Source: a phage
Reading direction: 5' to 3' (one strand)
Assembly (NCBI GenBank): GCA_012145005.1
Contig: GCA_012145005.1_3029.1
Length of the DNA: 47,548 nucleotides
Of this stretch, positions 9,839-45,860 are shown piece after piece; within the stretch, counting starts at the first letter, position 1; every line of letters starts with the position of its first letter. The translations under genes were made by a program, and so were the position numbers. A model generated the notes under the pieces. It was not told where the DNA came from. It saw only the letters and a list, made by a program, of their open reading frames with translations, and did no database searches.

Positions 9839-9861
9839 AGTCTCCTTCGGGAGACTTTTTT
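9839..9861 (+). terminator. UUCG-tetraloop stem-loop with T-tract
   Basis: AGTCTCC-TTCG-GGAGACT followed by TTTTT. Confidence 0.7.
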
Positions 9862-9871
9862 CATTTTACCG

Positions 9872-9901
9872 GTTTACTTTCTATTTGAGCTGTGATACTA
9901 T
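9872..9901 (+). promoter_or_regulatory. T4-type early promoter
   Basis: GTTTAC, 17 bp, TACTAT. Confidence 0.6.
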
Positions 9902-9929
9902 ACAACCATCGGATAAAGAGGAGAACATC

Positions 9930-10118
9930 ATGAAAATTGAAGCACTTAATCAAGAAGGAAATATCTACGTCATCATTAATGGTGATTTTTTCGTCGACAT
10001 GGATGAAGTTACCAGTGAAGAACTTGAAAAACTTCTTAAGAAACGTTATGATATGTGTGATGAAGCTGCAACTCATATGGCGTGTGCAATATTCTCTCTT
10101 TCATATGTGGTGGAATAA
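9930..10118 (+). CDS. small hypothetical protein
   Basis: ORF track trimmed to ATG 9930 with GAGGAG RBS. Confidence 0.45.
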
Positions 10119-10300
10119 TGATTAGTATCGAACAAGCAGATAAAATTAAAGAATTGGTAGCTTTAATTCGCAAAGCAGATGAGGAACGCGTTAACTTTGC
10201 CTTATCAGGTATTGAAGAATTTGAAACTAAGGTTGATAATGCTTTAGAAGCTTTAGATATGTTTCTTGATGAAATTATCGATCATAATACGAGAGTTTAA
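10118..10300 (+). CDS. small acidic helical protein
   Basis: ORF track trimmed to ATG 10118; [13 protein letters not shown]. Confidence 0.4.
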   Translation: MISIEQADKIKELVALIRKADEERVNFALSGIEEFETKVDNALEALDMFLDEIIDHNTRV

Positions 10301-10302
10301 GT

Positions 10303-10497
10303 ATGCTAACACGTGAACAGTTTGAAAAAATCATTAAATTAGCACGTGATGTTGAAATAGATTCATATCAATTGGCAGTTGAGCACTGTGAAGGATATTC
10401 ATACGACGGTATAGAAGCAGCTAAAAAGGATTTAGATAAATCCAAAGCTAAGTTAGTTCAATATCTTGAAATGATTAGGTGGAATAATGAAAACTGA
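10303..10497 (+). CDS. small acidic helical protein
   Basis: ORF track; MLTREQFEKIIKL. Confidence 0.4.
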   Translation: MLTREQFEKIIKLARDVEIDSYQLAVEHCEGYSYDGIEAAKKDLDKSKAKLVQYLEMIRWNNEN

Positions 10498-10660
10498 AAA
10501 GCAGATGTTTTTAATGAAGCTAATTGAAGAATATGCTAATGCAGTTTCTGACTATGAGTGTTCTTCTCGGGAAAGAGGTACAGCTTTCGCAAAGGAAGAA
10601 ATGAAAATCATGGTTGATGCTCACACAAAACTCCAGAATTTTATTGAAAACGTCATTTAA
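10487..10660 (+). CDS. small hypothetical protein (57 aa)
   Basis: below track cutoff; start overlaps previous gene end. Confidence 0.3.
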   Translation: MKTEKQMFLMKLIEEYANAVSDYECSSRERGTAFAKEEMKIMVDAHTKLQNFIENVI

Positions 10661-10662
10661 TG

Positions 10663-10692
10663 GTTTACAAGTTGGCAAGGTTATGGTATAGT
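10663..10692 (+). promoter_or_regulatory. T4-type early promoter
   Basis: GTTTAC, about 18 bp, TATAGT; inverted repeat GTTGGCAA/TTGCCAAC flanks the -10. Confidence 0.55.
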
Positions 10693-10720
10693 AATTTTGC
10701 CAACTGCCAAGGAGAAGAGA

Positions 10721-10825
10721 ATGAAAGTTTTGTTTGTTGTGTATGTGATGATTCAATATAATTACCCAATGTTTACTTATAATTTGGTGAACAATATTAT
10801 TGATATTATTCAAAGGAGTATGTAA
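10721..10825 (+). CDS. possible 34-aa hydrophobic leader peptide
   Basis: AAGGAG-like RBS then ATG; MKVLFVVYVMIQYNYPMF; low confidence. Confidence 0.2.
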   Translation: MKVLFVVYVMIQYNYPMFTYNLVNNIIDIIQRSM

Positions 10826-10827
10826 TT

Positions 10828-11385
10828 GTGAGTGAGTCAAAGAGAATCAATATGAAACGATTAGTATTAGAAGTTAGTCCGCTTTTTGGTGAATTGGCTA
10901 TAGAAAAAGTAAATAATATGTATCGTTTGACGCAAGAAGACGATATGCTATATTTTACGCCCAGTGAAATCATTCGTTTAACCCAAATTGAATATCCTTA
11001 TACTGATAAAATAGTAAGCATCAATGATGAGCACAAAATTCATTTTTATTCTTCATGCCCAGGATTTAATATTAACAGTGAGTCAATGTGTTTATCAGTT
11101 ATCCATTGGGATAGTTTTATAGCTAAGATTAAATATTTTTATTATTCTAATGAAAGAAAACATAGTTTAAAATGGCTCAAAAATTGCAATGCTATTATTA
11201 CTAACGCTTGCAATCAGAATGATGAAACTCTTTTAAATGTATCAAAATGTTATGAAGAGGGAGATGTCTTAACTATTCGCCAAATTGACGATTTTCGATC
11301 ACATATTGTCACATTTACCAAAGACGAAGCTATTGCGCTAAAGACTTATCTTGATTCTGTCATTCCAACTATGATTTCAAAGTGA
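10828..11385 (+). CDS. hypothetical protein, paralog pair member A
   Basis: GTG start 9 nt after AAGGAG; C-terminus KDEAIALKTYLDSVIPTM similar to next gene. Confidence 0.45.
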   Translation: MSESKRINMKRLVLEVSPLFGELAIEKVNNMYRLTQEDDMLYFTPSEIIRLTQIEYPYTDKIVSINDEHKIHFYSSCPGFNINSESMCLSVIHWDSFIAKIKYFYYSNERKHSLKWLKNCNAIITNACNQNDETLLNVSKCYEEGDVLTIRQIDDFRSHIVTFTKDEAIALKTYLDSVIPTMISK

Positions 11386-11391
11386 GGAAAT

Positions 11392-11913
11392 ATGTTTATT
11401 TCAAGTGAAAGTGGTTTAATTCGTGTTGAATTTAAAAATGACATCTTCCTTATTCAAGGAGATGATATTATTAAAATGAGTTATGACGAAATCAAGAAAA
11501 TTTGTCATACTCTTGAAAGTCATGGAAAGGAAAATGCTACTATCGATATAGGTGATTTATGGGTGACGCTTTATGAAGTATCCGAAGGATTTAACATTGA
11601 AGATGAAAACAACATCTTAGCTATTGATAAAAGAAGTGATTTGTTTGATGTGTTAAAAGTTTATGAACAGTCAAACGGTGGAAGAAAAGCCGTATTGATT
11701 TATCAAAAACCGCATTCATGCGGAACTGCTTCAATTATTTCAAATATTGAAGATGAAACTGATACCTATATGTGTGTTTTGAAAGCGGGCGGTGACCGTC
11801 ATCCGGATTTTATTTCTATTCGTCAAAACAATGGAGAAATTTCATTATCAAAATCAGAAGCTGAAGCTATGATTAAGTATTTAACAACCGTTACACCTTC
11901 AATGAAAGGATAA
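11392..11913 (+). CDS. hypothetical protein, paralog pair member B
   Basis: C-terminus KSEAEAMIKYLTTVTPSM parallels previous gene. Confidence 0.45.
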   Translation: MFISSESGLIRVEFKNDIFLIQGDDIIKMSYDEIKKICHTLESHGKENATIDIGDLWVTLYEVSEGFNIEDENNILAIDKRSDLFDVLKVYEQSNGGRKAVLIYQKPHSCGTASIISNIEDETDTYMCVLKAGGDRHPDFISIRQNNGEISLSKSEAEAMIKYLTTVTPSMKG

Positions 11914-11915
11914 TT

Positions 11916-12377
11916 ATGATTATTAATGAAAGCTCTTGGCACTATAAATTATTCAAAATGTTTAATGATGAATGGAAACGACCTAAGACACTATGCGCGT
12001 ATTTTTGGTCTATTGTTATTCCTACATTTTTCGTTTCTTTTTTCGGATGTACTATACTCGCAGGTCTAACTATCATCTGCGCAGAAATCATGCAGAAATG
12101 GCTTATTTTTGGTAGTTTATGGACTCTTATTCCATCAGCATTTATACTTGCCATTTTGCTTGTTTTACTTATTATCGGTTCATTTGTTATTCCTGCACAA
12201 TTGCATGAAAAATATAAAGATTATAAATGGAAAAAGGATTATGCTTTACATGTAGAAAATATTGATAGGGCGTATAAAGGTTTACCTCCTATTCAACCAA
12301 AGAAATCTATTATCGTCGAATTTTTAAAAGCGCGTAAAGCTAAAGTATGTCCTGTTATTGAATATAAGGCTGAATGA
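11916..12377 (+). CDS. two-TM membrane protein
   Basis: two long hydrophobic segments in ORF track protein. Confidence 0.45.
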   Translation: MIINESSWHYKLFKMFNDEWKRPKTLCAYFWSIVIPTFFVSFFGCTILAGLTIICAEIMQKWLIFGSLWTLIPSAFILAILLVLLIIGSFVIPAQLHEKYKDYKWKKDYALHVENIDRAYKGLPPIQPKKSIIVEFLKARKAKVCPVIEYKAE

Positions 12378-13387
12378 TGAAAACAGTAATGAAAAGCTAT
12401 TTTGGCAGTCATCTTTATGGAACTTCTACTCCAGAATCTGATGTAGATTTTAAAGAAATCTTTGTTCCTCCTGCTCGCGATATTCTTATCGGAAATGTTA
12501 AAGAGCATATGAGTAAAAACACTAACAACACATCATCTAAAAACACTAAAGATGATATTGACCATGAACTATACAGTCTTAAGTATTTCTTTAAATTAGC
12601 AGCAGATGGTGAAACTGTAGCATTGGATATGCTTCACACTCCACCTGAGCTAGTGGTTAAATCTGATTTACCTGATGTATGGAAATTTATCCAAGACAAT
12701 CGTTCACGATTTTATACAACTAACATGAAATCCTATTTAGGATATGTCCGTAAGCAAGCTTCTAAATATGGTGTTAAGGGTTCTCGTTTGGCCGCATTGC
12801 GTGATGTATTGAAAGTAGTTAATCAAATCCCCGATCAGTGGGTTGATTATCAAGAAGACGGTTCCATTAAGCAACGTCGCACTAAAGTTGAAGATATTAA
12901 GCATCGTCTTCCAGAGAACGAATTCTGTGAATGGGTATTCCATAATCATGAGAAAACCGGTCCACAAACGTTCTACACTGTGTTGGGTCGTAAATATCAG
13001 ACAACACTTTCTCTTATTGAGCTTAAGCAGTCTTTGAATAAACTTGATGCCGAATACGGTGAACGTGCTCGTAAGGCTGAAGCGAATGAAGGTATTGACT
13101 GGAAAGCATTGAGTCATGCTTGTCGTGGTGGACTCCAACTATTGGAAATTTACAAAACTGGTGACTTAGTCTATCCACTTCAAGATGCTCCGTTTATTCT
13201 CGACGTGAAGCTGGGTAAACATCCATTTAAAACTGTTCAAGAGTTTTTGGAAGATGTGGTCGATCAAGTAGAAGCAGCATCCATTGAAGCTTCTAAGAAC
13301 GGTATGCAGCAAAAAGTAGACATGGGTTTTTGGGATGACTTCCTTGAGAGGGTTTATCTTGAAAACCACCGAAGTTATTATAAATGA
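12374..13387 (+). CDS. Pol-beta-superfamily nucleotidyltransferase-fold protein
   Basis: N-terminal FGSHLYGTSTPESDVDF fits hG[GS]x9-13Dh[DE]h NTase signature; candidate third acidic residue in VALDML. Confidence 0.5.
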   Translation: MMKTVMKSYFGSHLYGTSTPESDVDFKEIFVPPARDILIGNVKEHMSKNTNNTSSKNTKDDIDHELYSLKYFFKLAADGETVALDMLHTPPELVVKSDLPDVWKFIQDNRSRFYTTNMKSYLGYVRKQASKYGVKGSRLAALRDVLKVVNQIPDQWVDYQEDGSIKQRRTKVEDIKHRLPENEFCEWVFHNHEKTGPQTFYTVLGRKYQTTLSLIELKQSLNKLDAEYGERARKAEANEGIDWKALSHACRGGLQLLEIYKTGDLVYPLQDAPFILDVKLGKHPFKTVQEFLEDVVDQVEAASIEASKNGMQQKVDMGFWDDFLERVYLENHRSYYK

Positions 13388-13388
13388 T

Positions 13389-13413
13389 AGGGAGCCTTCG
13401 GGCTCCCTTTTTG
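13389..13413 (+). terminator. UUCG-tetraloop stem-loop with T-tract
   Basis: AGGGAGCC-TTCG-GGCTCCCT then TTTTT. Confidence 0.7.
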
Positions 13414-13435
13414 TTTAAAATGACGTCACAAAGTT

Positions 13436-13465
13436 GTTTACTTCTGCCGCAAAGCATATTATAAT
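13436..13465 (+). promoter_or_regulatory. T4-type early promoter
   Basis: GTTTAC, 17 bp, TATAAT. Confidence 0.65.
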
Positions 13466-13511
13466 ATATGTGTAGTTAATTAATTGCTCTTTAAAAATTG
13501 AGGAGAATACA

Positions 13512-13997
13512 ATGCATATTTTAATGCAATGCCTTGGCAACAAAATTAATGATTTTAATCATAAGCGTGTTAATGATTACATTAAAGACAAACTTGAGAT
13601 TAAAGACACACTTTTTAGAGGACTTACAATAGAGGAAGTGCTATCTTATAAGTTTGAAGTTAATAGGAGAATCAAATTTAAAAGAATAACTTCCTTTAGC
13701 AGTGAGTCTCATATAGCTGAAACGTTTGCGGCAGAACGCTATATGACTAATGTTTTAGTAGTATTAAAAAATGCAAACGTTTTCGACTATTCGACTGCTA
13801 TGATTGACATTTTAGAAAATTTAATCGCAATTGAAGAATCTGGTCAAACTGACGATGATAAGCTTAACAAGCTTTATGATAACCTTTGTATGGTAGATTA
13901 TGAAAGAGAGTTTTTACTGCCAATTAATTCTGAGTTAATAGTTAAAAACATATATTTTGATAGCAAAAAGAACATGCATATAGTAGAAATGGAATAA
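13512..13997 (+). CDS. putative mono-ADP-ribosyltransferase (R-S-E class, C3/ModB-like minimal domain)
   Basis: LFRG (Arg36), TSFSS (STS-like, 60-64), YEREFLLPINSELIV (ExE 131-133 in an ARTT-loop-like context) in canonical order and spacing. Confidence 0.5.
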   Translation: MHILMQCLGNKINDFNHKRVNDYIKDKLEIKDTLFRGLTIEEVLSYKFEVNRRIKFKRITSFSSESHIAETFAAERYMTNVLVVLKNANVFDYSTAMIDILENLIAIEESGQTDDDKLNKLYDNLCMVDYEREFLLPINSELIVKNIYFDSKKNMHIVEME

Positions 13998-14005
13998 ATC
14001 GACAC

Positions 14006-14034
14006 AAAGGGGCCCTAGAGGTCCCCTTTTTATT
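14006..14034 (+). terminator. stem-loop with T-tract
   Basis: AAAGGGG...CCCCTTTT followed by TATTT. Confidence 0.6.
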
Positions 14035-14042
14035 TCAAAAAT

Positions 14043-14065
14043 TTTTTCACAAAACGGTTTACAAG
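14043..14065 (+). repeat. 23-nt promoter-cassette segment repeated at 40319-40341
   Basis: TTTTTCACAAAACGGTTTACAAG identical at both sites. Confidence 0.7.
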
Positions 14066-14086
14066 CATAAAGCTTTATGGTACTAT
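14057..14086 (+). promoter_or_regulatory. T4-type early promoter
   Basis: GTTTAC, 17 bp, TACTAT; shares segments with promoters at 15499 and 40333. Confidence 0.65.
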
Positions 14087-14101
14087 ACAACTATCAACTA
14101 C
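14078..14101 (+). repeat. 24-nt promoter-cassette segment repeated at 15520-15543
   Basis: TGGTACTATACAACTATCAACTAC identical at both sites. Confidence 0.7.
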
Positions 14102-14123
14102 TGATACGGATTTGGAGAATAAA

Positions 14124-15092
14124 ATGAAAACTGTAACTATCAATAAGGGTATCTACTTCGGTAAAGAAATCTCTGGAACTTTTGAGCTCTTAGGCGAATG
14201 GTTCCCAGATAATGCTCCGGTAGATGCACAAGGAGATGGTAAAGTTTTTGTTGAAATTGACGGTAAACGTCGCGGTGTTTGGGTTTACAAATCAGATATT
14301 TCATATGATGGTGTAAAAGTTGAAGAAGTTAAAGAATCATATGAAGATATGAAAACCCGCATTAATAAAAGATTTAATGTTATGGGAATGATGACGAATG
14401 GTATTATTAATGGAAATATTCGTTCATTAATTATCTCTGGCGCAGCAGGTATTGGTAAAACGTATTCTTTAGATAAAGCTTTAAATAAAGCAAATGATAT
14501 TGGATACATTGAATATAAAAGCATTAATGGTAAAATCTCTGGTATTGGTCTTTATGAGCAGCTTTGGAATAATCGTGAAGAGAATTCTGTCCTTTTGATT
14601 GATGATGTGGATGTTTTCTCTGATATGGACATTCTTAATCTTCTAAAAGCCGCTCTGGACACTGGAGAGACCCGTAAAGTCTGCTGGAGTACTGCGTCTT
14701 CTTACTTAGAAGAAAAAGGCATTGACCGTGAGTTTGAATTTAAAGGAACGATTGTTTTTATCACAAACGTTGACATTGACCGCGAATTAGACCGTGGTAC
14801 TAAACTTGCTCCACATTTACAAGCATTGGTGTCCCGCTCAGTTTATTTGGATTTGGGTGTTCACACTAATGAAGAAATTATGGTCAGGGTTGAAGATGTT
14901 ATTCTTTCAACCGACATGATGCAAAAGCGCGGTCTTTCTGATGAAGAAACTTATAAAGCATTATCATGGATGAAAGTTAATGTTAATCGTTTACGCAATG
15001 TTTCACTGCGTACTGCTCTTTATCTTGCTGACTTTATTATGACCGACAAAAACGGTTGGGAAGAAATTGCTGAGGTTACTCTTCTAAAATAA
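14124..15092 (+). CDS. AAA+ ATPase-like protein
   Basis: Walker A ISGAAGIGKT, Walker B VLLIDDVD, sensor-1-like IVFITN; about 100-aa N-terminal domain. Confidence 0.55.
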   Translation: MKTVTINKGIYFGKEISGTFELLGEWFPDNAPVDAQGDGKVFVEIDGKRRGVWVYKSDISYDGVKVEEVKESYEDMKTRINKRFNVMGMMTNGIINGNIRSLIISGAAGIGKTYSLDKALNKANDIGYIEYKSINGKISGIGLYEQLWNNREENSVLLIDDVDVFSDMDILNLLKAALDTGETRKVCWSTASSYLEEKGIDREFEFKGTIVFITNVDIDRELDRGTKLAPHLQALVSRSVYLDLGVHTNEEIMVRVEDVILSTDMMQKRGLSDEETYKALSWMKVNVNRLRNVSLRTALYLADFIMTDKNGWEEIAEVTLLK

Positions 15093-15193
15093 TTCATAAG
15101 AGGACTTCTATGACAAAAAGGCAGTTCAGAAATAGATTATATGGACTGCCATCAAAAAGATGACTAGAATTAAACTGGTAAATGGAGGTAGTG

Positions 15194-15496
15194 ATGTTAT
15201 ACTCAAAGGCTCGTGAAATTTACGAAACTAAAATTAAAGAAGCTGTATTTCAATTCGCAACGACAATGCGATGGACAAATGATTGGGAGTATTCAAAAAA
15301 TCATAAGAAGCCCCTGGTGACAAGAAAGGCTCATATGTTAGTGTTAATAGACCGTGAGCAGATTAAAGCCCGAGAAGCCCTCCAGAATCATAAAAAGGCT
15401 GCCTTTGAATGGTTTATGGATAACACTGCTCCTGAGACTAAGAAAGTAGTGAGCGCTTGGTTCAGTGGAAAAAATTGTGAAAGAAGTTTCTTTTAG
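15194..15496 (+). CDS. hypothetical basic protein
   Basis: ORF track trimmed to ATG 15194 after GGAGG. Confidence 0.4.
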   Translation: MLYSKAREIYETKIKEAVFQFATTMRWTNDWEYSKNHKKPLVTRKAHMLVLIDREQIKAREALQNHKKAAFEWFMDNTAPETKKVVSAWFSGKNCERSFF

Positions 15497-15498
15497 TT

Positions 15499-15528
15499 GT
15501 TTACAAGACCGTTCCTCTGTGGTACTAT
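15499..15528 (+). promoter_or_regulatory. T4-type early promoter
   Basis: GTTTAC, 17 bp, TACTAT; 29/30 identical to promoter at 40333-40362. Confidence 0.65.
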
Positions 15529-15556
15529 ACAACTATCAACTACGGAGGAACACAAA

Positions 15557-16084
15557 ATGAACGCTAAAGATATTTTCAACTTGGTAAATTACAACGATGG
15601 TAAATTTAAATCTGAAGCACAAAGTAAGTTCTTTAATGACATCTCAATCGGAGGTGAAATCACAGTTGACGGAGGACAAATTTACAAATCCCGTTGGAAT
15701 TGGATCGTTATTATCGATGAGATTGGTATTGTAGAAATTTACAAGAATACGAATAAAAATCGTACATTACACTGGTCTCGTGATACTAACGAACAGTACA
15801 AAAGGGATAAAGCATCTAAATTATCTCGTGTAACTCAAGAAGATATTGAGTTCATCAAGAAAGATATTTTGATGTATGATAACTTAATTGCTGAAGAGCA
15901 AGCTGTTATTGATAAATTTGATGAGATTAAAGCTTCTCGTGAAATTCCTGATTTTATGAAAGAATCAGTAAATGAACGATACACTCTCATTTCAGAGCGT
16001 ATTGAAACTTACAAAAAGCAAAGAGCTGAACGCCAAAATACTCTTCGGAAGTTTGAAGAACGGTTAAAGACGGTACTCGCATAA
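15557..16084 (+). CDS. hypothetical protein with C-terminal coiled coil
   Basis: ORF track 15497 trimmed to ATG 15557 because the extension spans the promoter. Confidence 0.45.
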   Translation: MNAKDIFNLVNYNDGKFKSEAQSKFFNDISIGGEITVDGGQIYKSRWNWIVIIDEIGIVEIYKNTNKNRTLHWSRDTNEQYKRDKASKLSRVTQEDIEFIKKDILMYDNLIAEEQAVIDKFDEIKASREIPDFMKESVNERYTLISERIETYKKQRAERQNTLRKFEERLKTVLA

Positions 16085-16139
16085 CCGCTTTATACCAAGG
16101 ATGGTATAATGGTTCTAAGCCCTTTTAATTGAGATTATT

Positions 16140-16547
16140 ATGAAACGGTTGATAATTAAAAGATTGAATTTATTGATATGTTGTTTATGTGTAGTAGTTG
16201 CATATGGTTATTACGCAATTAATGATTATATGCACTATAAAGATTATGATGTTACTGTAGTTAATACCATTACAGGAACACAAGGAAAAGGGTCTAGTTT
16301 ATCGTTTATTGCCGTATATGAACTCAAAGACGGTTATAGATTTAGTGAATATATTTCCCCAGAGATGTATTCTTCAATAGAAAAAGGTGATAATATTACT
16401 GTAAGTTTACGTCCTTTCGACGTAAAACAGACACTGTTTGATAATATTGTTTGGTTCTTTGGGATGGTATTAGTTCAATCTGTGTGTGGTGCTTATGTAG
16501 TCTGTTCAATCATATTCTGTGTATTTAGTAAAATTGAAATTGAGTGA
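16140..16547 (+). CDS. membrane protein
   Basis: N- and C-terminal hydrophobic helices. Confidence 0.45.
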   Translation: MKRLIIKRLNLLICCLCVVVAYGYYAINDYMHYKDYDVTVVNTITGTQGKGSSLSFIAVYELKDGYRFSEYISPEMYSSIEKGDNITVSLRPFDVKQTLFDNIVWFFGMVLVQSVCGAYVVCSIIFCVFSKIEIE

Positions 16548-16554
16548 GGAAAAT

Positions 16555-17445
16555 ATGTCAGTAGTAATTAATAATGTCAATGCAGTAATTAAATCATTAG
16601 TTAATAAAAAAATGATGAATGAATGGACTGTACTTCGTCGTGGAGAGCCAGATAAATTTTTTCATAGATTTAACCCAACTTTGGATTTGAATGTTATCGA
16701 CAAAGATGTTCATGCTGAAATTTTAGATAAGTTTAAAGTTGATATTGGATTTGGATTAGAAAAACATTTACAGCGAACAAATGGATCTGGAATGAGTTTA
16801 TCTAATCGCATTATGAAAGCCCTTAATAAAATTGGAGCGTTGTCTCGTATTAATGCGAGTGAAATTCTTCGTAATTATAATAAAGGATATGACCTTTATG
16901 GTCGACTAATGCCGAAGTTATCATTTGACCAAATGATTGCAGATTTGTGGGAAAATCAGCGACGATTATTAGCATTAGGCGCTCGATTGGCTAAAGGTCT
17001 AGATAAACAAATGATTTTTAAGACCAATAATACAGAAGACCTTAAATGCTTTAAATTTAGTATTCGCGGAGATGATTATTACATCAGAGCTCACTCTACA
17101 GATTATGTTAATATGGGACATCATCTCTGTTTAGCTTTTGAAGTTTTAAAAGAAGCTGGAACATTAGAATATTCATCTGGTGCAAAATGCCCTATTGGTT
17201 CAAGTTGTATTTTAATTTATCGCCCGGATGAATCTAGTTCAACTAAATTGCCTACAAAACCTGTACCAGTTCGTAGTAACGAAAAACATTCTGAACAAAT
17301 TGATTATTTTAATAAGCAAATTGAAGAGCTGAATATTTCTATTCAACAATATGATGATGAAATTTTCAGACTATCTGGACTGAGTAGTAAAGCTAAATCT
17401 GAGCGTGAAAAGTTAATTAAAATTGTTGATTTACTTAAATCTTAA
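16555..17445 (+). CDS. coiled-coil-tailed protein, tandem paralog family member 1
   Basis: start at MSVVINN after GAGGAAAA; C-terminal heptad-rich region. Confidence 0.5.
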   Translation: MSVVINNVNAVIKSLVNKKMMNEWTVLRRGEPDKFFHRFNPTLDLNVIDKDVHAEILDKFKVDIGFGLEKHLQRTNGSGMSLSNRIMKALNKIGALSRINASEILRNYNKGYDLYGRLMPKLSFDQMIADLWENQRRLLALGARLAKGLDKQMIFKTNNTEDLKCFKFSIRGDDYYIRAHSTDYVNMGHHLCLAFEVLKEAGTLEYSSGAKCPIGSSCILIYRPDESSSTKLPTKPVPVRSNEKHSEQIDYFNKQIEELNISIQQYDDEIFRLSGLSSKAKSEREKLIKIVDLLKS

Positions 17446-17453
17446 GGAATACC

Positions 17454-18482
17454 ATGAAAACTCGTTCTCAAATTGAAGATATGGTTCGTAATGCCAGCTA
17501 TACTCGTGATGCTATGACATTTTTGTGTGAAAATAATTTAGACCTTGATAAAGTTAATTGTTCCATTCATGCCTTTAAACATCTGAACAGCAGCGAATGG
17601 GTGCGTAATTTTAGCGAAGCGGGGTATATTACACAAATGACGGCTCGTGAGCAGCTCACCGATTTCTGTAAAACTATTGATTATAAAAATCCTCTATTTG
17701 TTCAAGGCGTTGGTCAAAGTAAGGTTGATTTATCATCTGGATTTTTCAATCCAAATCATTATCGTATTGAATGGAGATTTATTGCTCTGTTCCGTAGACA
17801 ATTAAAGCAAATTTTATCAACTGCGAGTCGATTAAAAGGTTCTGATATTAACTTAAAGAACCTGAAATTTGATGGTTATACTCTTCAGATGGAAGTAAGA
17901 CCATTAAAAGAAAATAACAGAACCGCACGAATTAGCTTTAAACCTAATACAAAAAATTCTCTTTCAATTTGCGAATGCCTTAAATCGCAGTTGACAGAAG
18001 CATTTAAGTATATGGATGTTGTTGCTGCTGTTCAGTCTAAGATTTCACAACATTTCGAACGATTTAAATTAGACACAACAACATATGAACTTGATATGAT
18101 CGTTTCATTTAAATACGATTTTTTGAGAAAGGACGAAGTCACGCAAGAGAAAAAGCAGGAAGTGCAAGATAACTTAAATTTAAATTTATTCAATTACTCA
18201 TCAAACGATCCTAAATTTTGGATGTATAGCTCAAGCAATATAGATGCATGTAAACTTAATAAAGTGAGTTTTCTTCCTACTGAAAATTCAAATTTTAAAC
18301 CTGTAGAAAAATGGCACGCTGACGCGATTGAGAAGTCTCTTAAGGCAGTAGATGATGAACTCGTTAAAGCGACCAATGAAGTGCTAGAAGCTGAAAAGGT
18401 GTTAGAACAAGCTCAGTCAAGGGTTCAAAATCTGACAAAGCAACGTTCTAAACTGAACAATGCACTAAATGCACTGAACTAG
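17454..18482 (+). CDS. coiled-coil-tailed protein, tandem paralog family member 2
   Basis: N-term MKTRSQIEDM; C-terminal coiled coil. Confidence 0.5.
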   Translation: MKTRSQIEDMVRNASYTRDAMTFLCENNLDLDKVNCSIHAFKHLNSSEWVRNFSEAGYITQMTAREQLTDFCKTIDYKNPLFVQGVGQSKVDLSSGFFNPNHYRIEWRFIALFRRQLKQILSTASRLKGSDINLKNLKFDGYTLQMEVRPLKENNRTARISFKPNTKNSLSICECLKSQLTEAFKYMDVVAAVQSKISQHFERFKLDTTTYELDMIVSFKYDFLRKDEVTQEKKQEVQDNLNLNLFNYSSNDPKFWMYSSSNIDACKLNKVSFLPTENSNFKPVEKWHADAIEKSLKAVDDELVKATNEVLEAEKVLEQAQSRVQNLTKQRSKLNNALNALN

Positions 18483-18511
18483 TTTACTTTGCCACAAGGA
18501 TGTGGTATAAT
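18482..18511 (+). promoter_or_regulatory. T4-type early promoter
   Basis: GTTTAC, 17 bp, TATAAT. Confidence 0.65.
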
Positions 18512-18539
18512 GTTCTTACTTTCTACTGAGGAGATTAAT

Positions 18540-19541
18540 ATGACTCGTAACGAATATATCAAATCATTCAATAGTGTTATTGATGATAAAGCTATACCGA
18601 TGTTTGGTCAAAATAGCGTTATTTCTATTATCAATCAATGGCTCAATAGTGTTGATGCAAGTATTGTTTCTTCTACTAAATTTATTCATGAAATTCGTAA
18701 AATTTCTAGCCGTGTAGATAAAGATGTTATCAAAAAAACTTTTAAAGGGTCTCATCTTCTTTCATACTTAGTCAACAGAGATATTCTTAGTAAATTTGGG
18801 AAAGAAATTAAACGAACTAAAGATGTAGTAGGATATAATTGGTTCGGTGATGTTAATTCTTATCATCTTAATAATAAAGAAGACCCTGAGAATATTTTTA
18901 CTCGTCGTTGGATTAGTAATTTCAGACTTTTCAAAGGACAGATTCTAAAATCAGCTTCTAAATTATGTTATGGCGATTATCGTCAAATTCATCCTTTGGC
19001 TTCTGATATGATTATCATAAAAGAATATGAACTTGATAAAAATAAAGTATCTATTTTTGTGAATTATGGATTTTTTACACCAGAAACTAACCAAAAGAAC
19101 ATTAATAAATTTTTCTCAATTGCTAGCACTATAACTCGTCAATTAGAAACCGCATTACTTTGTATGGAAACAGTAGAAAATATTCATACGTATCCTTTTA
19201 AGAATATATGCGGTTGGGAAGGATATAAAATTGTAGTTAGTCTTCGTGAAGTGAAATGTGCTTATTCACTAACTGATAAAGAAATTTACCAACAAAAACG
19301 TGAAGAAATTGTGAATACTCCTAAAGAAGAAACTACACTTGAGGAACTAATGGATAATCTTGACGATTCGCCTGAACCAGTAGAAATTCGTCCAGAAGTT
19401 ATTGCACTAGAAAAAGCTTATAAAGAAGCTCTAGAAATTTCTAATAAAGCACAGAAAGAATATGAGCAGGCTAAAAGGATTTGGGAAGAATCTGTTAATC
19501 GTCTGGATCGTCTTGAACAAGCTTTACAATTAATTAAGTAA
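18540..19541 (+). CDS. coiled-coil-tailed protein, tandem paralog family member 3
   Basis: track ORF 18489 trimmed to ATG 18540 (extension overlaps promoter); C-terminal coiled coil. Confidence 0.5.
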   Translation: MTRNEYIKSFNSVIDDKAIPMFGQNSVISIINQWLNSVDASIVSSTKFIHEIRKISSRVDKDVIKKTFKGSHLLSYLVNRDILSKFGKEIKRTKDVVGYNWFGDVNSYHLNNKEDPENIFTRRWISNFRLFKGQILKSASKLCYGDYRQIHPLASDMIIIKEYELDKNKVSIFVNYGFFTPETNQKNINKFFSIASTITRQLETALLCMETVENIHTYPFKNICGWEGYKIVVSLREVKCAYSLTDKEIYQQKREEIVNTPKEETTLEELMDNLDDSPEPVEIRPEVIALEKAYKEALEISNKAQKEYEQAKRIWEESVNRLDRLEQALQLIK

Positions 19542-19593
19542 TTTAAAGCCAAGGATGGCTCGGAGTATAAATCATTAACTAAGTGAGAAGAAC

Positions 19594-20523
19594 ATGAAAA
19601 CTCGTAAACATTATATTGATTATTTTGACAGTCTTATTACTAAACATCGTAATTATCAGATCGGGCACAGAGCAGTAATCAATAATATTCTTCGTGATTT
19701 CCTTCAATATGTTGGCCAGGAAAATCATATCTGTAAAGATACTCAAAACGCTTATTCTCATTCGTTAGGCAATTTGCTTCAATGGTTTAAACGTTCTCGT
19801 CTGTTATCTTCTACTGTAGCTAGTGATAACATTAAAAACTTTATGAAGCCGAGCTTTATTAAATCTGAGACATCTATAACCGATTTGGTTGAATTTACTA
19901 TTGTTAACGATGTTAAAAAGACTCATTTGGCTGATTGGTTTTCTACCATTCCTGAAACTAAATTTGCTGATAAATTCGCCTGTCAATTCAATGACCAAGT
20001 GAATATGCTTTTTAAGCATGCTCGCAAACTGTTTACCGCGGGTGATGACCGTACAAATACAGTTCATGTTAAGGACTGGGTTATTGCTGATGAAGTAACA
20101 CACAAGCCAGGTGGTTCATCAGTATTAATTAATATCCAGGTTCCTTATTATTACTCACGTAATCTCGGCACCATGACAGCTAGAGAAATTAATAAGCACA
20201 ACAAAACTATTCGTTCGTTGTCTTATAAACTCCGCATGATGTTAAAAATTATGGACGTAGTGGAAATGTATGACGAAACCGAAGATAATGGTTCAATGTT
20301 ATACAGTTCACGCATTCTAATTAAACTGAAGAACCCTAATACATATAAGACAGTTGTAAAAGAGCCTAAAGTAGAAAAGGTTGATAATCTGAGTGAAGAA
20401 CGTGAATATCTCAATGCCCGTTTGATTGAAGTTGAAGCCCAAATTACAGAACACACCAAATTGTTAAAAGCTCTTAATGCAAAAGCAAATGGTTTACGTA
20501 ATGCTATTGAGGTATTGAAATGA
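19594..20523 (+). CDS. coiled-coil-tailed protein, tandem paralog family member 4
   Basis: N-term MKTRKHYIDYF parallels member 2; C-terminal coiled coil. Confidence 0.5.
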   Translation: MKTRKHYIDYFDSLITKHRNYQIGHRAVINNILRDFLQYVGQENHICKDTQNAYSHSLGNLLQWFKRSRLLSSTVASDNIKNFMKPSFIKSETSITDLVEFTIVNDVKKTHLADWFSTIPETKFADKFACQFNDQVNMLFKHARKLFTAGDDRTNTVHVKDWVIADEVTHKPGGSSVLINIQVPYYYSRNLGTMTAREINKHNKTIRSLSYKLRMMLKIMDVVEMYDETEDNGSMLYSSRILIKLKNPNTYKTVVKEPKVEKVDNLSEEREYLNARLIEVEAQITEHTKLLKALNAKANGLRNAIEVLK

Positions 20524-20909
20524 AAAAGCGTTTATTAGAAGACATTGCAGCTTCAAGTAATTCCAGTTTAATTAAAATTATTATGGCTGGTGAGGAAGAT
20601 GATATGGAAATGCGTGGAAAGATTCACGGCTGCGACGATTTAGATTTTAAACCTCCAGCATGGGATGCTATTATGGCTATGGTTGAACGACGTGAAAGAG
20701 CTTCTAAAAACGTTCCTAATTGCCCTGAATGCGGTACTGAACAAGTTCAGTTGATTAACTGGCGTAAACCAGAGCTTGAATATAAATGCCGTCAATGTAA
20801 ACATAAATTCAGTAAGCATGCTCCGGAAATGGTTAAATTGCCTGACTCTACTGAGTTCTTTAAAGAACTTGTGAGTGTTCAACCAATGCCTAATAATATT
20901 TTGGATTAA
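20520..20909 (+). CDS. zinc-ribbon protein
   Basis: CPECG ... CRQC four-cysteine zinc ribbon. Confidence 0.45.
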
Positions 20910-22135: not shown

Positions 22136-22258
22136 AACCCTGGTGGGCGGCTAGATGGGAAACTGTAGAGCCAGAACCGGAAGAACCGGTTTACACTGAT
22201 GAAGAAACAATATATAATGAACCAACGATAAATGACTTAATTGATATGGAGATGGGAC

Positions 22259-26946: not shown

Positions 26947-27147
26947 ATGAATCCTGAATCTAAATTATCGCAACGAATTGCTGAAGCTCGTCGCCAGTTC
27001 TTTGAAAATATGATAGCCCAGGGTATTGATGACGAAGTTTTTCTGAACTGGTTTTGGAATCACAAATATTCAAAATGCGCAGGAGCAATATTAATATCAG
27101 CCGCAATGATGTACGAAGGCTGGAAGGGTGCCAAACAGTTTAGCTAA
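26947..27147 (+). CDS. small hypothetical protein
   Basis: ORF track. Confidence 0.4.
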   Translation: MNPESKLSQRIAEARRQFFENMIAQGIDDEVFLNWFWNHKYSKCAGAILISAAMMYEGWKGAKQFS

Positions 27148-29584: not shown

Positions 29585-30787
29585 ATGAAAGTATGTATTT
29601 TTATGGCTCGAGGTCTTGAAGGTTGTGGTGTAACAAAATTCTCACTCGAGCAACGTGATTGGTTTATTAAAAATGGTCATGAAGTGACTTTGGTTTATGC
29701 TAAAGATAAATCATTTACTCGTAATTGCGCGCATGATTATAAATCATTTTCAATTCCGGTTTTATTGGCAAAAGAATACGATAAAACACTTAAGCTGGTA
29801 AATGATTGTGATATTCTAATTATCAATTCAGTTCCTGCTACTTCGGTTGAAGAAGACACTATTAATAACTATAAAAAAATTATTGATAACATTAAACCTT
29901 CTGTTCGTGTTGTAGTTTATCAGCATGACCATTCTTCTCTTTCTTTGCGTCGAAATTTGGGATTAGAAGAAACTGTTCGTCGAGCTGATGTTATTTTTAG
30001 CCATTCTGATAATGGTGATTTTAATAAAGTTCTGATGAAAGAATGGTATCCTGAAACAGTTTCTCTGTTTGATGATATTGAAGAAGCACCGACCGTATAT
30101 AACTTTCAGCCTCCTATGGATATTGCGAAAGTTCGATCAACCTATTGGAAAGATGTTTCTGAAATTAATATGAATATCAACCGTTGGATTGGTCGTACGA
30201 CTACATGGAAAGGTTTTTATCAGATGTTTGATTTTCACGAAAAACATCTTAAACCTGCAGGACTAAGTACTATTATGGAAGGTCTGGAACGTTCTCCAGC
30301 GTTCATTCCTATTAAAGAAAAAGGAATTCCATACGAGTATTATCGTCTTCATCAAGTAGACCAAATTAAAATTGCTCCTAATTTGCCAACGCAAATTCTT
30401 GACCGTTATGTAAATAGCGAAATGCTTGAACGCATGAGTAAATCCGGATTTGGTTATCAACTGAGTAAGTTGGACAAAAAATATTTACAACGTTCTTTAG
30501 AATATACTCATCTCGAGCTTGGTGCATGTGGAACAATTCCGGTATTTTGGAAATCTACTGGCGAAAATTTAAAATTCCGTGTTGATAATACTCCTTTGAC
30601 CTCGCATGATAGCGGTATCATTTGGTTTGATGAAAATGATATGGAATCAACATTTGAACGTATTAAAGAACTGTCATCTGACCGAGCTCTTTATGACCGT
30701 GAGCGAGAAAAAGCATATGAATTTTTGTATCAGCATCAAGATTCAAGCTTCTGCTTTAAAGAACAGTTTGACATTATTACAAAATAA
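29585..30787 (+). CDS. agt: DNA alpha-glucosyltransferase
   Basis: 400 aa; MKVCIFMARGLEGCGVTKFSLEQRDWFIKNGHEV matches T4 alpha-gt. Confidence 0.93.
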   Translation: MKVCIFMARGLEGCGVTKFSLEQRDWFIKNGHEVTLVYAKDKSFTRNCAHDYKSFSIPVLLAKEYDKTLKLVNDCDILIINSVPATSVEEDTINNYKKIIDNIKPSVRVVVYQHDHSSLSLRRNLGLEETVRRADVIFSHSDNGDFNKVLMKEWYPETVSLFDDIEEAPTVYNFQPPMDIAKVRSTYWKDVSEINMNINRWIGRTTTWKGFYQMFDFHEKHLKPAGLSTIMEGLERSPAFIPIKEKGIPYEYYRLHQVDQIKIAPNLPTQILDRYVNSEMLERMSKSGFGYQLSKLDKKYLQRSLEYTHLELGACGTIPVFWKSTGENLKFRVDNTPLTSHDSGIIWFDENDMESTFERIKELSSDRALYDREREKAYEFLYQHQDSSFCFKEQFDIITK

Positions 30788-40249: not shown

Positions 40250-40332
40250 CATACAAGTAATATAAATCTATACTTAGGAAAAATAGATGATTCTGGACCT
40301 TTGGAATTCATTAAAAAATTTTTCACAAAACG

Positions 40333-40362
40333 GTTTACAAGACTGTTCCTCTGTGGTACTAT
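40333..40362 (+). promoter_or_regulatory. T4-type early promoter
   Basis: GTTTAC, 17 bp, TACTAT. Confidence 0.65.
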
Positions 40363-40396
40363 TACCCTATCAACCAATACAAATTTGGAGAATGAA

Positions 40397-40777
40397 ATGA
40401 AAATCGCTATTTTGGTTATTGCATTGGGTCTTACTGGTTGTGTAGCTCAAGGACCGGTAGTAAATCAATCTGATGTAGGAAAAATTGTAAACTGTTCAAG
40501 CAAATTTTATAATCCTAACGTCAAGTGTTATAAAGAAGCTCCAAAACAGACAGTAGAACAAATGCAGGCGAATTTTGACGAAGCTATTCGTCCAGATGAA
40601 TCTGCTCAAGCATATCGTAATTCAGATGTAATTACACGCGAAGAAAAAATTGAAAACTACTGCGCCGAACTTTGGGCTAATTGGGCTAATAATTACCAAT
40701 GGCGAACTGGTAAAAATGCTCCAATGGAGTATGTAGTGAATTCTTATAATTCATGTGTAAAAAATTTGACTAAGTGA
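40397..40777 (+). CDS. predicted lipoprotein (periplasmic)
   Basis: MKIAILVIALGLTGC lipobox signal peptide; track ORF 40208 trimmed because the extension spans terminator and promoter. Confidence 0.55.
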   Translation: MKIAILVIALGLTGCVAQGPVVNQSDVGKIVNCSSKFYNPNVKCYKEAPKQTVEQMQANFDEAIRPDESAQAYRNSDVITREEKIENYCAELWANWANNYQWRTGKNAPMEYVVNSYNSCVKNLTK

Positions 40778-44374: not shown

Positions 44375-45802
44375 GTGGTAGAAATTATTCTTTCTCATCT
44401 CATATTTGATCAAGCTTATTTTTCAAAAGTTTGGCCATATATGGATTCAGAATATTTTGAAAGTGGTCCAGCTAAAAATACATTCAAATTAATTAAATCT
44501 CATGTTAATGAGTACCATAGCGTTCCATCTATTAATGCGCTAAATGTTGCATTAGAAAATAGTTCATTTACTGAAACAGAATATTCTGGTGTAAAAACAC
44601 TTATTTCAAAACTGGCTGATTCTCCAGAAGACCACAGCTGGTTAATAAAAGAAACAGAAAAATATGTTCAGCAAAGGGCGATGTTTAATGCTACGTCTAA
44701 AATAATCGAAATTCAAACCAATGCTGAGCTTCCTCCAGAAAAACGAAATAAGAAAATGCCAGATGTAGGTGCTATTCCTGACATCATGCGCCAAGCATTA
44801 TCAATTTCATTTGATAGTTACGTTGGTCATGATTGGATGGATGACTACGAAGCACGTTGGCTATCTTATATGAATAAAGCTCGTAAGGTTCCATTTAAAC
44901 TCAGAATTCTAAACAAAATTACGAAAGGCGGAGCTGAAACAGGAACACTGAACGTTTTAATGGCTGGCGTTAACGTTGGTAAGTCATTAGGATTGTGTTC
45001 ATTGGCAGCAGATTATTTACAGCTCGGACATAATGTTCTTTACATTTCCATGGAAATGGCAGAAGAAGTCTGTGCTAAACGTATTGATGCTAACATGCTC
45101 GATGTTTCTCTTGACGATATTGATGATGGACATATTTCTTACGCTGAGTATAAAGGAAAAATGGAAAAATGGCGTGAGAAATCTACTCTTGGTCGTTTAA
45201 TCGTTAAACAGTACCCTACTGGTGGGGCAGATGCTAACACATTCAGGTCTCTCTTGAATGAATTGAAGCTCAAAAAGAATTTTGTTCCAACAATCATTAT
45301 TGTCGACTATCTAGGTATTTGTAAATCTTGCCGCATCAGAGTTTACTCAGAAAATAGTTACACAACTGTTAAAGCTATTGCAGAGGAATTGCGTGCTCTT
45401 GCTGTTGAAACCGAAACTGTTCTTTGGACTGCAGCACAGGTTGGTAAACAAGCTTGGGACTCTTCCGATGTTAACATGAGTGATATCGCAGAATCTGCTG
45501 GTCTTCCAGCAACAGCTGATTTTATGCTTGCGGTCATTGAAACCGAGGAGCTAGCAGCTGCTGAACAACAACTCATTAAGCAAATCAAATCACGATATGG
45601 CGATAAGAATAAGTGGAATAAGTTTTTGATGGGTGTTCAAAAGGGAAATCAGAAATGGGTAGAAATTGAACAAGATTCTACTCCAACTGAAGTGAGTGAA
45701 GTAGCAGGTTCACAACAGATTCAGGCTGAACAGAATCGCTATCAAAGAAATGAATCCACTCGAGCACAGTTAGATGCTTTGGCAAATGAATTAAAATTTT
45801 AG
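44375..45802 (+). CDS. 41: replicative DNA helicase gp41
   Basis: 475 aa, GTG start; Walker A GVNVGKS; matches T4 gp41. Confidence 0.95.
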   Translation: MVEIILSHLIFDQAYFSKVWPYMDSEYFESGPAKNTFKLIKSHVNEYHSVPSINALNVALENSSFTETEYSGVKTLISKLADSPEDHSWLIKETEKYVQQRAMFNATSKIIEIQTNAELPPEKRNKKMPDVGAIPDIMRQALSISFDSYVGHDWMDDYEARWLSYMNKARKVPFKLRILNKITKGGAETGTLNVLMAGVNVGKSLGLCSLAADYLQLGHNVLYISMEMAEEVCAKRIDANMLDVSLDDIDDGHISYAEYKGKMEKWREKSTLGRLIVKQYPTGGADANTFRSLLNELKLKKNFVPTIIIVDYLGICKSCRIRVYSENSYTTVKAIAEELRALAVETETVLWTAAQVGKQAWDSSDVNMSDIAESAGLPATADFMLAVIETEELAAAEQQLIKQIKSRYGDKNKWNKFLMGVQKGNQKWVEIEQDSTPTEVSEVAGSQQIQAEQNRYQRNESTRAQLDALANELKF

Positions 45803-45831
45803 TTTACAAGCTGACAAGACTATGGTATAGT
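45802..45831 (+). promoter_or_regulatory. T4-type early promoter
   Basis: GTTTAC overlapping gene 41 stop, 17 bp, TATAGT; inverted repeat ACAAGACTA/TAGTCTTGT around -10. Confidence 0.6.
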
Positions 45832-45860
45832 AGTCTTGTTGGTTAAATGAGGAGATTGTT

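Follow-up and report, generated by a model that had tools for sequence, protein, structure and literature searches.

In a 47,548-nucleotide (nt) stretch of phage DNA (hereafter the window; NCBI GenBank assembly GCA_012145005.1, contig GCA_012145005.1_3029.1), which belongs to a Tequatrovirus, the region at positions 9839-20523 is punctuated by composite elements that combine an early promoter with a stem-loop, and in the spacer between the genes nrdC.11 and nrdC.10 such elements bound small gene cassettes that are present in some close relatives and absent from others. We consider it probable that homologous exchange between these dispersed promoter/stem-loop repeats explains both this cassette hotspot and the mosaic structure of the promoters; the explanation applies to these two phenomena and not to the whole region. 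The evidence that carries it consists of the anatomy of the elements, the direct repeats flanking the cassettes, the presence or absence of cassettes in relatives with breakpoints in the repeats, the transfer of cassettes between phage genera, and promoter modules that occur as mosaics and are polymorphic among relatives.

By their sequence, the elements are promoter-early stem-loops (PeSLs), which have already been reported for T4 and PST, so the phenomenon itself is a known one. PeSLs were described in phages RB49 and phi1 by Arbiol et al. (2010), who demonstrated their promoter and terminator activities as well as mini-circles, located the crossovers in the AT-rich region, in the hairpin loop or in the stretch from the -10 box to the ATG, and left open the question of a helper protein (PMC2839356). 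Comeau et al. (2014) extended them to PST/T4 and nt-1/KVP40, gave the PST/T4 consensus TTTACW-N17-TAYWAT, and linked the PST/T4 elements to insertions and deletions (indels) in the hyperplastic region; the PST coordinates appear to correspond to the genome part studied here, and the main text names no nrdC or mobD gene (PMC4122927). The present analysis adds a six-state hotspot at a site that is variable across many T4-like lineages, promoter module mosaics at loci 25 kb apart, and covariation in the hairpins across the -10 box.

A six-state cassette hotspot between nrdC.11 and nrdC.10

The 10.7-kb region matches 767 phage records, with Tequatrovirus genomes taking all the top places, and its closest match is Escherichia phage UFV-AREG1 (97.4% identity over the region searched). 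For comparison, the region was fetched from 14 annotated relatives, and the BLAST alignments against the window were chained by dynamic programming. Cassette states were then recorded in the window and in 18 Tequatrovirus relatives, i.e. these 14 and the Tequatrovirus-like IMG/VR loci L023-L026. Gene names are taken from the UFV-AREG1 and T4 annotation, with which the naming of the genes from rI to nrdC in the original prediction agrees.

The spacer between nrdC.11 and nrdC.10 contains from zero to three promoter-bounded cassettes, in six combinations. Cassette A (13512-13997, + strand in the window) consists of a gene for a protein of 161 amino acids (aa), while cassettes B, a 49-aa plus 87-aa (DUF4031) gene pair, and C, a 66-aa gene, are found in the same spacer of relatives. 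The spacer is empty in T4, Lutter, RB9, RB68, teqhad, Pu-Krd-SF2, EC121, L023 and L026. Cassette A alone is present in the window, UFV-AREG1 and T2, and B alone in ELT1, UAB_60 and L025; the combination A+B occurs in G4500, B+C in slur08 and L024, and A+B+C in FT. The original prediction had named, as the outcome that would speak against it, related genomes with the same gene content and no breakpoints at these cassettes; the relatives in fact differ in their genes, and the breakpoints lie inside the elements.

Cassette A is bounded on the left by PeSL 3 (nrdC.11/cassette A, 13389-13465, + strand), in which the hairpin AGGGAGCC-TTCG-GGCTCCCT and a T-tract (13389-13408) precede the promoter GTTTAC-N18-TATAAT (13436-13465); the hairpin is invariant in an alignment of eight genomes. 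On the right it is bounded by PeSL 4 (cassette A/nrdC.10, 14009-14123, + strand), which is also the insertion point for cassettes B and C in other phages. This element begins with the hairpin GGGGCC-CTAGA-GGTCCCC and a T-tract (14009-14025), continues with an AT-rich upstream element (14037-14056) and the promoter GTTTAC-N18-TACTAT (14057-14086), and ends with a leader and Shine-Dalgarno sequence that run to the ATG at 14124. PeSL 3 and PeSL 4 are homologous over ~85 bp, as would be expected if a PeSL-bearing circle had integrated into a PeSL already in place. Where this spacer has only one PeSL, the genome aligns to both of the PeSLs around cassette A, with an overlap of 22-53 bp, and the direct repeat around the cassette, which extends from the T-tract to the -35 box, is perfect over 35 bp in FT and 19 bp long in T2. 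Cassettes B and C are bounded by promoters that have no upstream hairpin, and their junctions lie at the segment comprising the -10 box, the motif CTATCAA and the leader.

The motif CTATCAA stands at a fixed four bases past the -10 box in a sub-family of the promoters (3 matches vs 0.03 expected), namely at 14081-14097, 15523-15539 and 40357-40373 on the + strand of the window and also in cassette promoters of the loci L006, L019 and L020. It marks the position of the cassette B and C junctions, and we know of no described function for it.

The hotspot is not confined to close relatives. In the phage collection, cassette A is found in 44 records, cassette B at full length in 158 and cassette C in 140. 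Across many T4-like lineages, represented by 34 IMG/VR loci, nrdC.11 and nrdC.10 are separated by 108-2277 bp, in which none to several small open reading frames (ORFs) are found, and 28 of the 34 gaps contain a sigma-70-like promoter.

Transfer of cassettes between genera

Cassette C of the Tequatrovirus FT is 94.6% identical over 334 bp to that of the Mosigvirus G53, in which the neighbouring genes differ. The homology starts at the -35 sequence GTTTAC and ends just past the -10 region of the next promoter, and in another Mosigvirus, JN02, cassette C lies ~12 kb away from the match to the nrdC region. Cassette A of FT, on the other hand, is 94.1% identical over 665 bp to that of Citrobacter phage Moon, compared with 67.6% for nrdC.11 and 75.5% for nrdC.10, and the edges of the conserved block lie in the first hairpin/T-tract and in the AT-rich element of the next PeSL. 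More generally, cassette A shows ~94% nucleotide identity to its copies in Moonvirus and Gelderlandvirus, compared with 68-75% for the flanking genes. These alignments clearly indicate that cassettes A and C have moved between genera, with boundaries inside the promoter/stem-loop elements.

A further junction is seen in Salmonella phage STML-198 (L021, 3040-3095), where the terminator hairpin that follows cassette A is cut short and runs straight into a -10 box and nrdC.10 leader of the T4 type; this leader now precedes an unrelated 59-aa gene. The junction has the look of a degraded half PeSL, of the kind known from PST.

Mosaic promoters and a second cassette site

The original prediction had pointed to three repeats shared by promoters in different combinations, and all three are borne out: 14043-14065 is identical to 40319-40341 (23 nt), 14078-14101 is identical to 15520-15543 (24 nt), and 15499-15528 agrees with 40333-40362 at 29 of 30 positions. 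The window has four exact direct repeats of 18 nt or longer, and these promoter modules supply three of them (24, 23 and 18 nt), the fourth being a 22-nt repeat in the terminator hairpin at 30783/35493; the longest repeats in 30 first-order Markov simulations were 15-19 nt. The promoter family is also the largest direct-repeat family (D1) of the window.

If the upstream modules are called X and W, the spacer modules Y1 and Y2, and the first transcribed bases Z1 and Z2, module comparison on the + strand resolves the promoter at 14057 into X-Y1-Z1, that at 15499 into W-Y2-Z1 and that at 40333 into X-Y2-Z2. The last of these lies outside the region, 3' of gene 43 (40313-40396, + strand), where it drives imm.1, and combines the upstream module of 14057 and the spacer of 15499 with a downstream module of its own, TACCCTATCAAC. 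Because all three pairings occur, no single tree fits the three promoters, and a shared consensus does not explain the identity, because it includes the spacer and the leader, which have no known promoter role.

T4 and every sampled relative apart from EC121 have the same modules in the nrdC.10 and nrdC.8 promoters; this part of the mosaic is thus old and not specific to the present genome. In EC121, the nrdC.8 promoter carries the alternative downstream module Z2. The promoter 3' of gene 43 in UFV-AREG1, in turn, has the composition X-Y2-Z1 with an nrdC.10-type leader, and there it drives an extra 78-aa gene, a 233-bp indel, whereas in the window, which lacks this gene, the promoter leads directly into imm.1. 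Many records have ~615-637 bp at this site instead of 369 bp, and many other phages also carry the extra 78-aa gene; the query region used for the site matches four to six places per genome. The comparison marks the 43/imm.1 spacer (40333-40410) as a second cassette site, outside the region, and indicates that promoter modules have been exchanged between loci 25 kb apart and that the exchange continues. The suggestion that promoter modules recombine is thereby strengthened, since the modules are polymorphic between loci in such close relatives as EC121 and UFV-AREG1.

The elements and their agreement with known PeSLs

The pattern GTTTAC-N18-TAnnnT occurs 15 times in the window, always on the + strand, which is the sense strand for T4 early genes, where 0.66 occurrences are expected; seven of the 15 fall inside the region, which makes up 22% of the window. 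A generic sigma-70 scan gave no enrichment (67 matches vs 54.9 +/- 7.5), and only the T4-specific promoter pattern is informative. The match at 10771 was discounted as a promoter, being located within the 34-aa mobD.2 ORF, and that at 22189 lies in sequence that is conserved in all relatives and reads like coding DNA. A scan of the region with a terminator-like consensus returned 15 matches, compared with 6.0 +/- 2.2 in shuffled sequences.

Among the 18 genes of the region lie nine intergenic spacers of 50 bp or more. A GTTTAC-type promoter is present in six of them (9872, 10663, 13436, 14057, 15499 and 18482), and the spacers at 15093-15181 and 19542-19593 have none. The original prediction that almost every gene or gene pair is bracketed by a GC-rich stem-loop and an early promoter was therefore overstated. 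Only three promoters are preceded by a GC-rich hairpin with a T-tract, the form of an intrinsic terminator (9839-9856, 13389-13408 and 14009-14025). Two others have instead a strong hairpin across the -10 box which, having no T-run, does not qualify as an intrinsic terminator, and for the promoter at 18482 there is no more than a weak hairpin in the spacer. Nor are the units single genes or pairs, as one to five genes lie between successive promoters.

Apart from the two elements around cassette A, PeSL 1 (rI.-1/mobD.5, 9839-9901, + strand) consists of the hairpin AGTCTCC-TTCG-GGAGACT with six Ts (9839-9856) and the promoter GTTTAC-N18-TACTAT (9872-9901); its fold has a z score of -2.17, its position is kept in 14 of 14 relatives, and the depositor of the Lutter genome annotated a terminator and a promoter there. 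In general, the predicted promoters and terminators annotated by the depositors of Lutter and G4500 fall at the same places as the elements described here. PeSL 2 (mobD.2a/mobD.2, 10663-10705, + strand) has the promoter GTTTAC-N18-TATAGT (10663-10692) and no hairpin upstream; a 14-15 bp hairpin lies across its -10 box (arms 10670-10683 and 10692-10705; z -4.25, with 0 of 200 shuffles folding as well). PeSL 5 (nrdC.9/nrdC.8, 15499-15551, + strand) is of the same kind, with the promoter GTTTAC-N18-TACTAT (15499-15528) and a 13-bp hairpin (arms 15511-15523 and 15539-15551) that covers the -10 box together with the probable start site (z -3.46, 0 of 200 shuffles). The weak case is PeSL 6 (nrdC.5/nrdC.4, 18482-18511, + strand), which has the promoter GTTTAC-N18-TATAAT and a small spacer hairpin, GCCACA-AGGA-TGTGGT; its fold reaches a z of only -0.93, and it is conserved in all relatives.

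The resemblance to the PeSL cassettes of T4-type phages, to which the original prediction had drawn attention, extends to every sequence-level feature of these elements. Like known PeSLs, they lie in spacers of the hyperplastic region and combine AT-rich DNA with a sigma-70-like early promoter, a stem-loop and, before the ATG, a Shine-Dalgarno sequence. The promoters at the six intergenic sites conform to the PeSL promoter, with the TATAGT at 10663 one position off TAYWAT. AT-rich sequence is found upstream, e.g. at 14031-14056 (TTTATTTCAAAAATTTTTTCACAAAACG), 9857-9871 and 13409-13435; at 10663, 15499 and 18482, where the preceding gene extends as far as the -35 box, it is harder to make out. 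Stem-loops lie next to the promoter or overlap it, weakly so at 18482; the upstream position is that known from PST, and the position across the -10 box that known from RB49. GGAG or GAGG stands 5-9 nt before the ATG in six of six spacers. The location is hyperplastic, judging from the share of promoter matches given above, from a cargo mostly of unknown function and from variable gene content. Crossovers inside the elements are seen at nrdC.11/nrdC.10 (cassettes A, B and C) and at 40333, and, as in known PeSLs, the crossovers of indels between close relatives map to the AT-rich region or to the interval from the -10 box to the ATG. We find no essential difference; the elements here are known from their sequence, while activity and mini-circles were shown in RB49/phi1.

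Hairpins across the -10 box

In early promoters of the TATAGT class, a stem of 11-15 bp encloses the -10 box. Besides PeSL 2, such a hairpin is found in a paralogue of that element outside the region (45802-45844, + strand; GTTTAC-N18-TATAGT, family D4), where 15 bp are paired across the -10 box (hairpin at 45809-45844, fold z -4.09), and in the loci L019 (6548), L020 (1146 and 2710), L027 (3989), and L047 and L048 (both 8969). The stem sequences vary between copies, including the paralogue at 45802, and the pairing is kept. Among 14 orthologues and paralogues, 91.4% of cells are paired and nine of 15 pairs have changed on both sides, values reached in 0 of 500 shuffles; slid controls had at most 59.5% of cells paired. 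Three non-folding sites of the TATAGT class were left out of the alignment, so that the count leans towards structure. Many of the pairs are G-U, which suggests that the conserved fold would be that of the + strand transcript and not of duplex DNA.

The hairpin at 15511-15551 has the -10 box in its loop, and its 3' arm contains the Shine-Dalgarno sequence GGAGG of nrdC.8. Read-through transcripts might thus hide this Shine-Dalgarno sequence, while locally started ones, lacking the 5' arm, would not. At 40345, where the same spacer recurs, a partner arm is missing and the sequence does not fold (z +1.33), and the hairpins at 10670 and 45809 do not cover a Shine-Dalgarno sequence. In the T4 genes e, 49 and I-TevI, a hairpin hides the ribosome-binding site and is relieved by a promoter inside the hairpin, the promoters used being late ones. 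The hairpin at 15511-15551 is similar in that its 3' arm bears the Shine-Dalgarno sequence and that a promoter lies within it; here, however, the promoter is an early one, predicted from sequence.

Mechanism and alternative explanations

We propose that the region is part of the T4-type hyperplastic region and is punctuated by composite PeSLs, each of which would probably end or attenuate incoming early transcription and then restart it, making the gene or genes downstream a self-expressed cassette. T4-type phages recombine very actively, and since repeats of 30-100 bp are scattered on one strand, the repeats could act as portable homology. A crossover between two PeSLs would remove the cassette that lies between them, probably in the form of a small circle, or would add one; crossovers would also swap cassettes between co-infecting phages and convert promoter copies with segments of another. 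Promoter and terminator activity in this phage, ordinary homologous recombination and a circular intermediate are what we infer from these comparisons. The mechanism explains the hotspot at nrdC.11/nrdC.10 as well as the site at 43/imm.1. The remaining plasticity of the region is due to homing endonucleases, to short-homology deletions at gene starts and to duplication of tandem paralogues.

A number of observations weigh against exchange between PeSLs, above all as an explanation for the region at large. Six of its nine distinct indel events have no PeSL junctions, which are found only for cassettes A, B and C. The endonuclease gene mobD replaces orf173 and orf153 in T4, RB9 and Pu-Krd-SF2; an annotated segE-like endonuclease gene lies between nrdC.10 and nrdC.9 in RB9, RB68 and L025; and a 440-bp insertion of two ORFs lies between the tightly packed mobD.2 and mobD.1. 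ELT1 has a 1.9-kb deletion at a 14-bp gene-start homology, AATAATGAAAACTG, and both ELT1 and EC121 have a deletion of nrdC.4 at ACTCGTAA, which starts ~50 bp 3' of the promoter at 18482 and fuses nrdC.4 and nrdC.3, which are paralogues, at their 5' ends. EC121 also has a replacement at 10826-11250. Four of the six promoter spacers of the region showed no cassette indel in the sampled relatives: none was seen at 9872, 10663 and 15499, and at 18482 the deletion adjoins the spacer but does not lie inside it. Among the region's promoter spacers, the comparison thus identifies only nrdC.11/nrdC.10 as an active cassette hotspot in these relatives. Even there, the repeats around cassette A of the window are degenerate, with only 8 bp exact, and this copy may now be nearly fixed. 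Moreover, ~73% of the intergenic DNA of the region is PeSL, so that any surviving intergenic breakpoint will usually fall there and its position alone proves little; homology at the junction is the stronger evidence. Finally, T4 early promoters are under strong selection for a common extended UP/-35/TGn/-10 consensus (PMC2988021), and given this selection some of the promoter similarity is functional and not recombinational.

Part of this evidence would suit a simpler account, in which the elements are ordinary punctuation, illegitimate or short-homology indels survive only in spacers, and the likeness of the promoters is a selected consensus. Several indels of the region indeed use only 8-14 bp of homology at gene starts, co-location with PeSLs is expected by default from their share of the spacer DNA, and both the common consensus and the promoter spacers without indels agree with it. 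This account is nevertheless unlikely for the hotspot and the mosaics, as the identity takes in the spacers of 18 nt and between 12 and 40 nt of transcribed leader, the modules are combined in incompatible ways, a perfect 35-bp repeat surrounds cassette A in FT, the blocks that cassettes A and C share across genera have their ends inside promoter elements, and cassette C is found in a different genomic context. Cleavage nearby by a homing endonuclease such as mobD or a segE-like enzyme, with repair from a co-infecting genome co-converting the flanks, would be another source of mosaicism, and we regard it as very improbable here. It fits the mobD and segE-like indels of the relatives, among them the replacement of orf173 (11392-12377 in the window together with orf153), where the T4 state looks derived because the first 16 nt of orf173 remain in T4. 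Cassettes A, B and C, however, encode no endonuclease in a Pfam/PHROG domain scan, their boundaries are promoter repeats and not the edge of an endonuclease gene, and the six cassette combinations occur in genomes with and without mobD. That the region is built up and trimmed by tandem duplication, with unequal crossing-over among paralogues, is suggested by the paralogue sets mobD.4/.3/.2a, mobD.1/orf173 and nrdC.4/nrdC.3, by the nrdC.4 deletion between paralogue 5' ends in ELT1 and EC121, and by an extra ORF of RB9-type genomes that an annotation note assigns to the same orthologue group as mobD.4. As the source of the hotspot we give it almost no credence: profile searches link A, B and C neither to their neighbours nor to one another, and the junctions lie in promoters, not in coding repeats. 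The paralogue process is complementary to exchange between PeSLs and is no alternative to it at the hotspot.

A bolder reading would make nrdC.11/nrdC.10 a dedicated cassette-acquisition site across T4-like phages, integron-like but without an integrase, whose folded PeSLs would be recognised by a phage enzyme, e.g. a nuclease specific for junctions or hairpins, and would be more than passive homology. It would explain why one junction is variable in every sampled lineage while other PeSL spacers are not, and the depth of the hotspot, the selection on the hairpins and the open question of a helper protein are compatible with it; nothing requires it, and its probability seems to us quite low. 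As in integron arrays, one conserved site holds a variable series of small, unrelated, co-oriented cassettes with hairpin-forming boundary repeats, and a circular intermediate is proposed. In contrast to integrons, each cassette has its own promoter instead of a shared one, the boundaries have extended homology instead of a structure-defined attC, and the region shows no tyrosine recombinase. The domain search behind this statement covered 17 window proteins and the three proteins of cassettes B and C in Pfam, ten of these also in PHROGs; it found no integrase or recombinase domain, nor any nuclease or HNH/GIY-YIG domain, among them. Cassette A also resembles the morons of lambdoid phages described by Hendrix and colleagues, being a single accessory gene with its own promoter and a terminator-like hairpin between two conserved genes. 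Morons, however, are believed to be acquired through illegitimate recombination and often point the opposite way to their neighbours (PMC2839356), whereas the cassettes here are co-oriented, and their regulatory sequences themselves supply the homology for movement.

Exchange between PeSL-type elements is one proposed route by which T4-like phages may gain and lose small accessory genes without disturbing the neighbours, and many of these genes probably serve in host takeover or counter-defence. The nrdC.11/nrdC.10 site introduces no new principle; it is a well-resolved natural example, with three independent cassettes in six combinations in one spacer. The graded repeats, from 35 bp in FT to degenerate here, could be used to measure how repeat length affects excision and acquisition rates in tractable T-even phages. 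Since they have recently been mobile, the cassette genes are probably adaptive, i.e. those for the ADP-ribosyltransferase-like protein of cassette A, the DUF4031 protein and the 66-aa protein. Several records name the product of cassette A an RNA polymerase ADP-ribosylase or ModA/ModB-like protein. Its one match is to PHROG 832 (E 7e-24) and falls at the far end of that profile, which has 1480 positions; with neither a Pfam family nor a sequence relative in the PDB, the label is weakly founded, the PHROG match being its sole support.

Gene content and other sequence features of the window

From the end of rI.-1, the region continues with mobD.5-mobD.1, two ORFs in place of mobD, nrdC.11, the extra gene of 161 aa, and nrdC.10 down to nrdC.3. 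The 18 genes from mobD.5 to nrdC.3 (9930-20523, + strand) were characterised by gene model and by Pfam and PHROG matches. The view that this cargo is the least characterised in the window is broadly right: it has mostly domains of unknown function, together with a nucleotidyltransferase and a weak P-loop NTPase. Tandem paralogues are found in mobD.4/.3/.2a (DUF7438), in mobD.1 and orf173 (y05I-like, orf173 being a putative transcription factor), and in nrdC.4/nrdC.3 (phrog_1435). These predicted relationships (DUF7438 three times, y05I-like and phrog_1435 twice each) show that the region has also been built by duplication. A 518-bp insertion between nrdC.4 and nrdC.3 in L026 proved to be an artefact of a partial tblastn match, as blastn shows colinearity.

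The spacer upstream of nrdC.7 holds the MotA-type middle promoter PnrdC.7, which is not a PeSL (16085-16139, + strand; GCTTTA at 16087-16092, TATAAT at 16105-16110). In T4 this middle promoter, with its start site at 53325, is listed in Table 1 of PMC2988021, and T4 nrdC.7 ends at 53302 in the T4 annotation. A small hairpin on CCA(C)AAGGATG(T)GG recurs in three consecutive spacers, before nrdC.7 (16095-16104), nrdC.4 (18492-18505) and nrdC.3 (19549-19558), in each case just 5' of a -10-like box. The two exact 10-mers are not significant on their own, and CCAAGGATGG in three consecutive spacers was rejected as a candidate repeat: with one mismatch allowed, 19 of 100 shuffles reach the count. 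The nrdC.4/nrdC.3 spacer (19542-19593) contains GTATAAATC, which is near the T4 late-promoter motif TATAAATA.

Outside the region, a family of terminator-like hairpins, AAAGGGCTTCGGCCCTTT, occurs at 27142, 30783, 35493 and 37440, in the part of the window with replication genes, and the 22-mers at 30783 and 35493 are identical. An internal length variant was found in nrdC.2 (20803-20909), where the window, Lutter, G4500, RB68, FT and others have ~105 bp, in place of which UFV-AREG1, T4, T2, RB9, ELT1, teqhad and Pu-Krd-SF2 have 17 bp; the resulting proteins are ~129 or ~105 aa in length.

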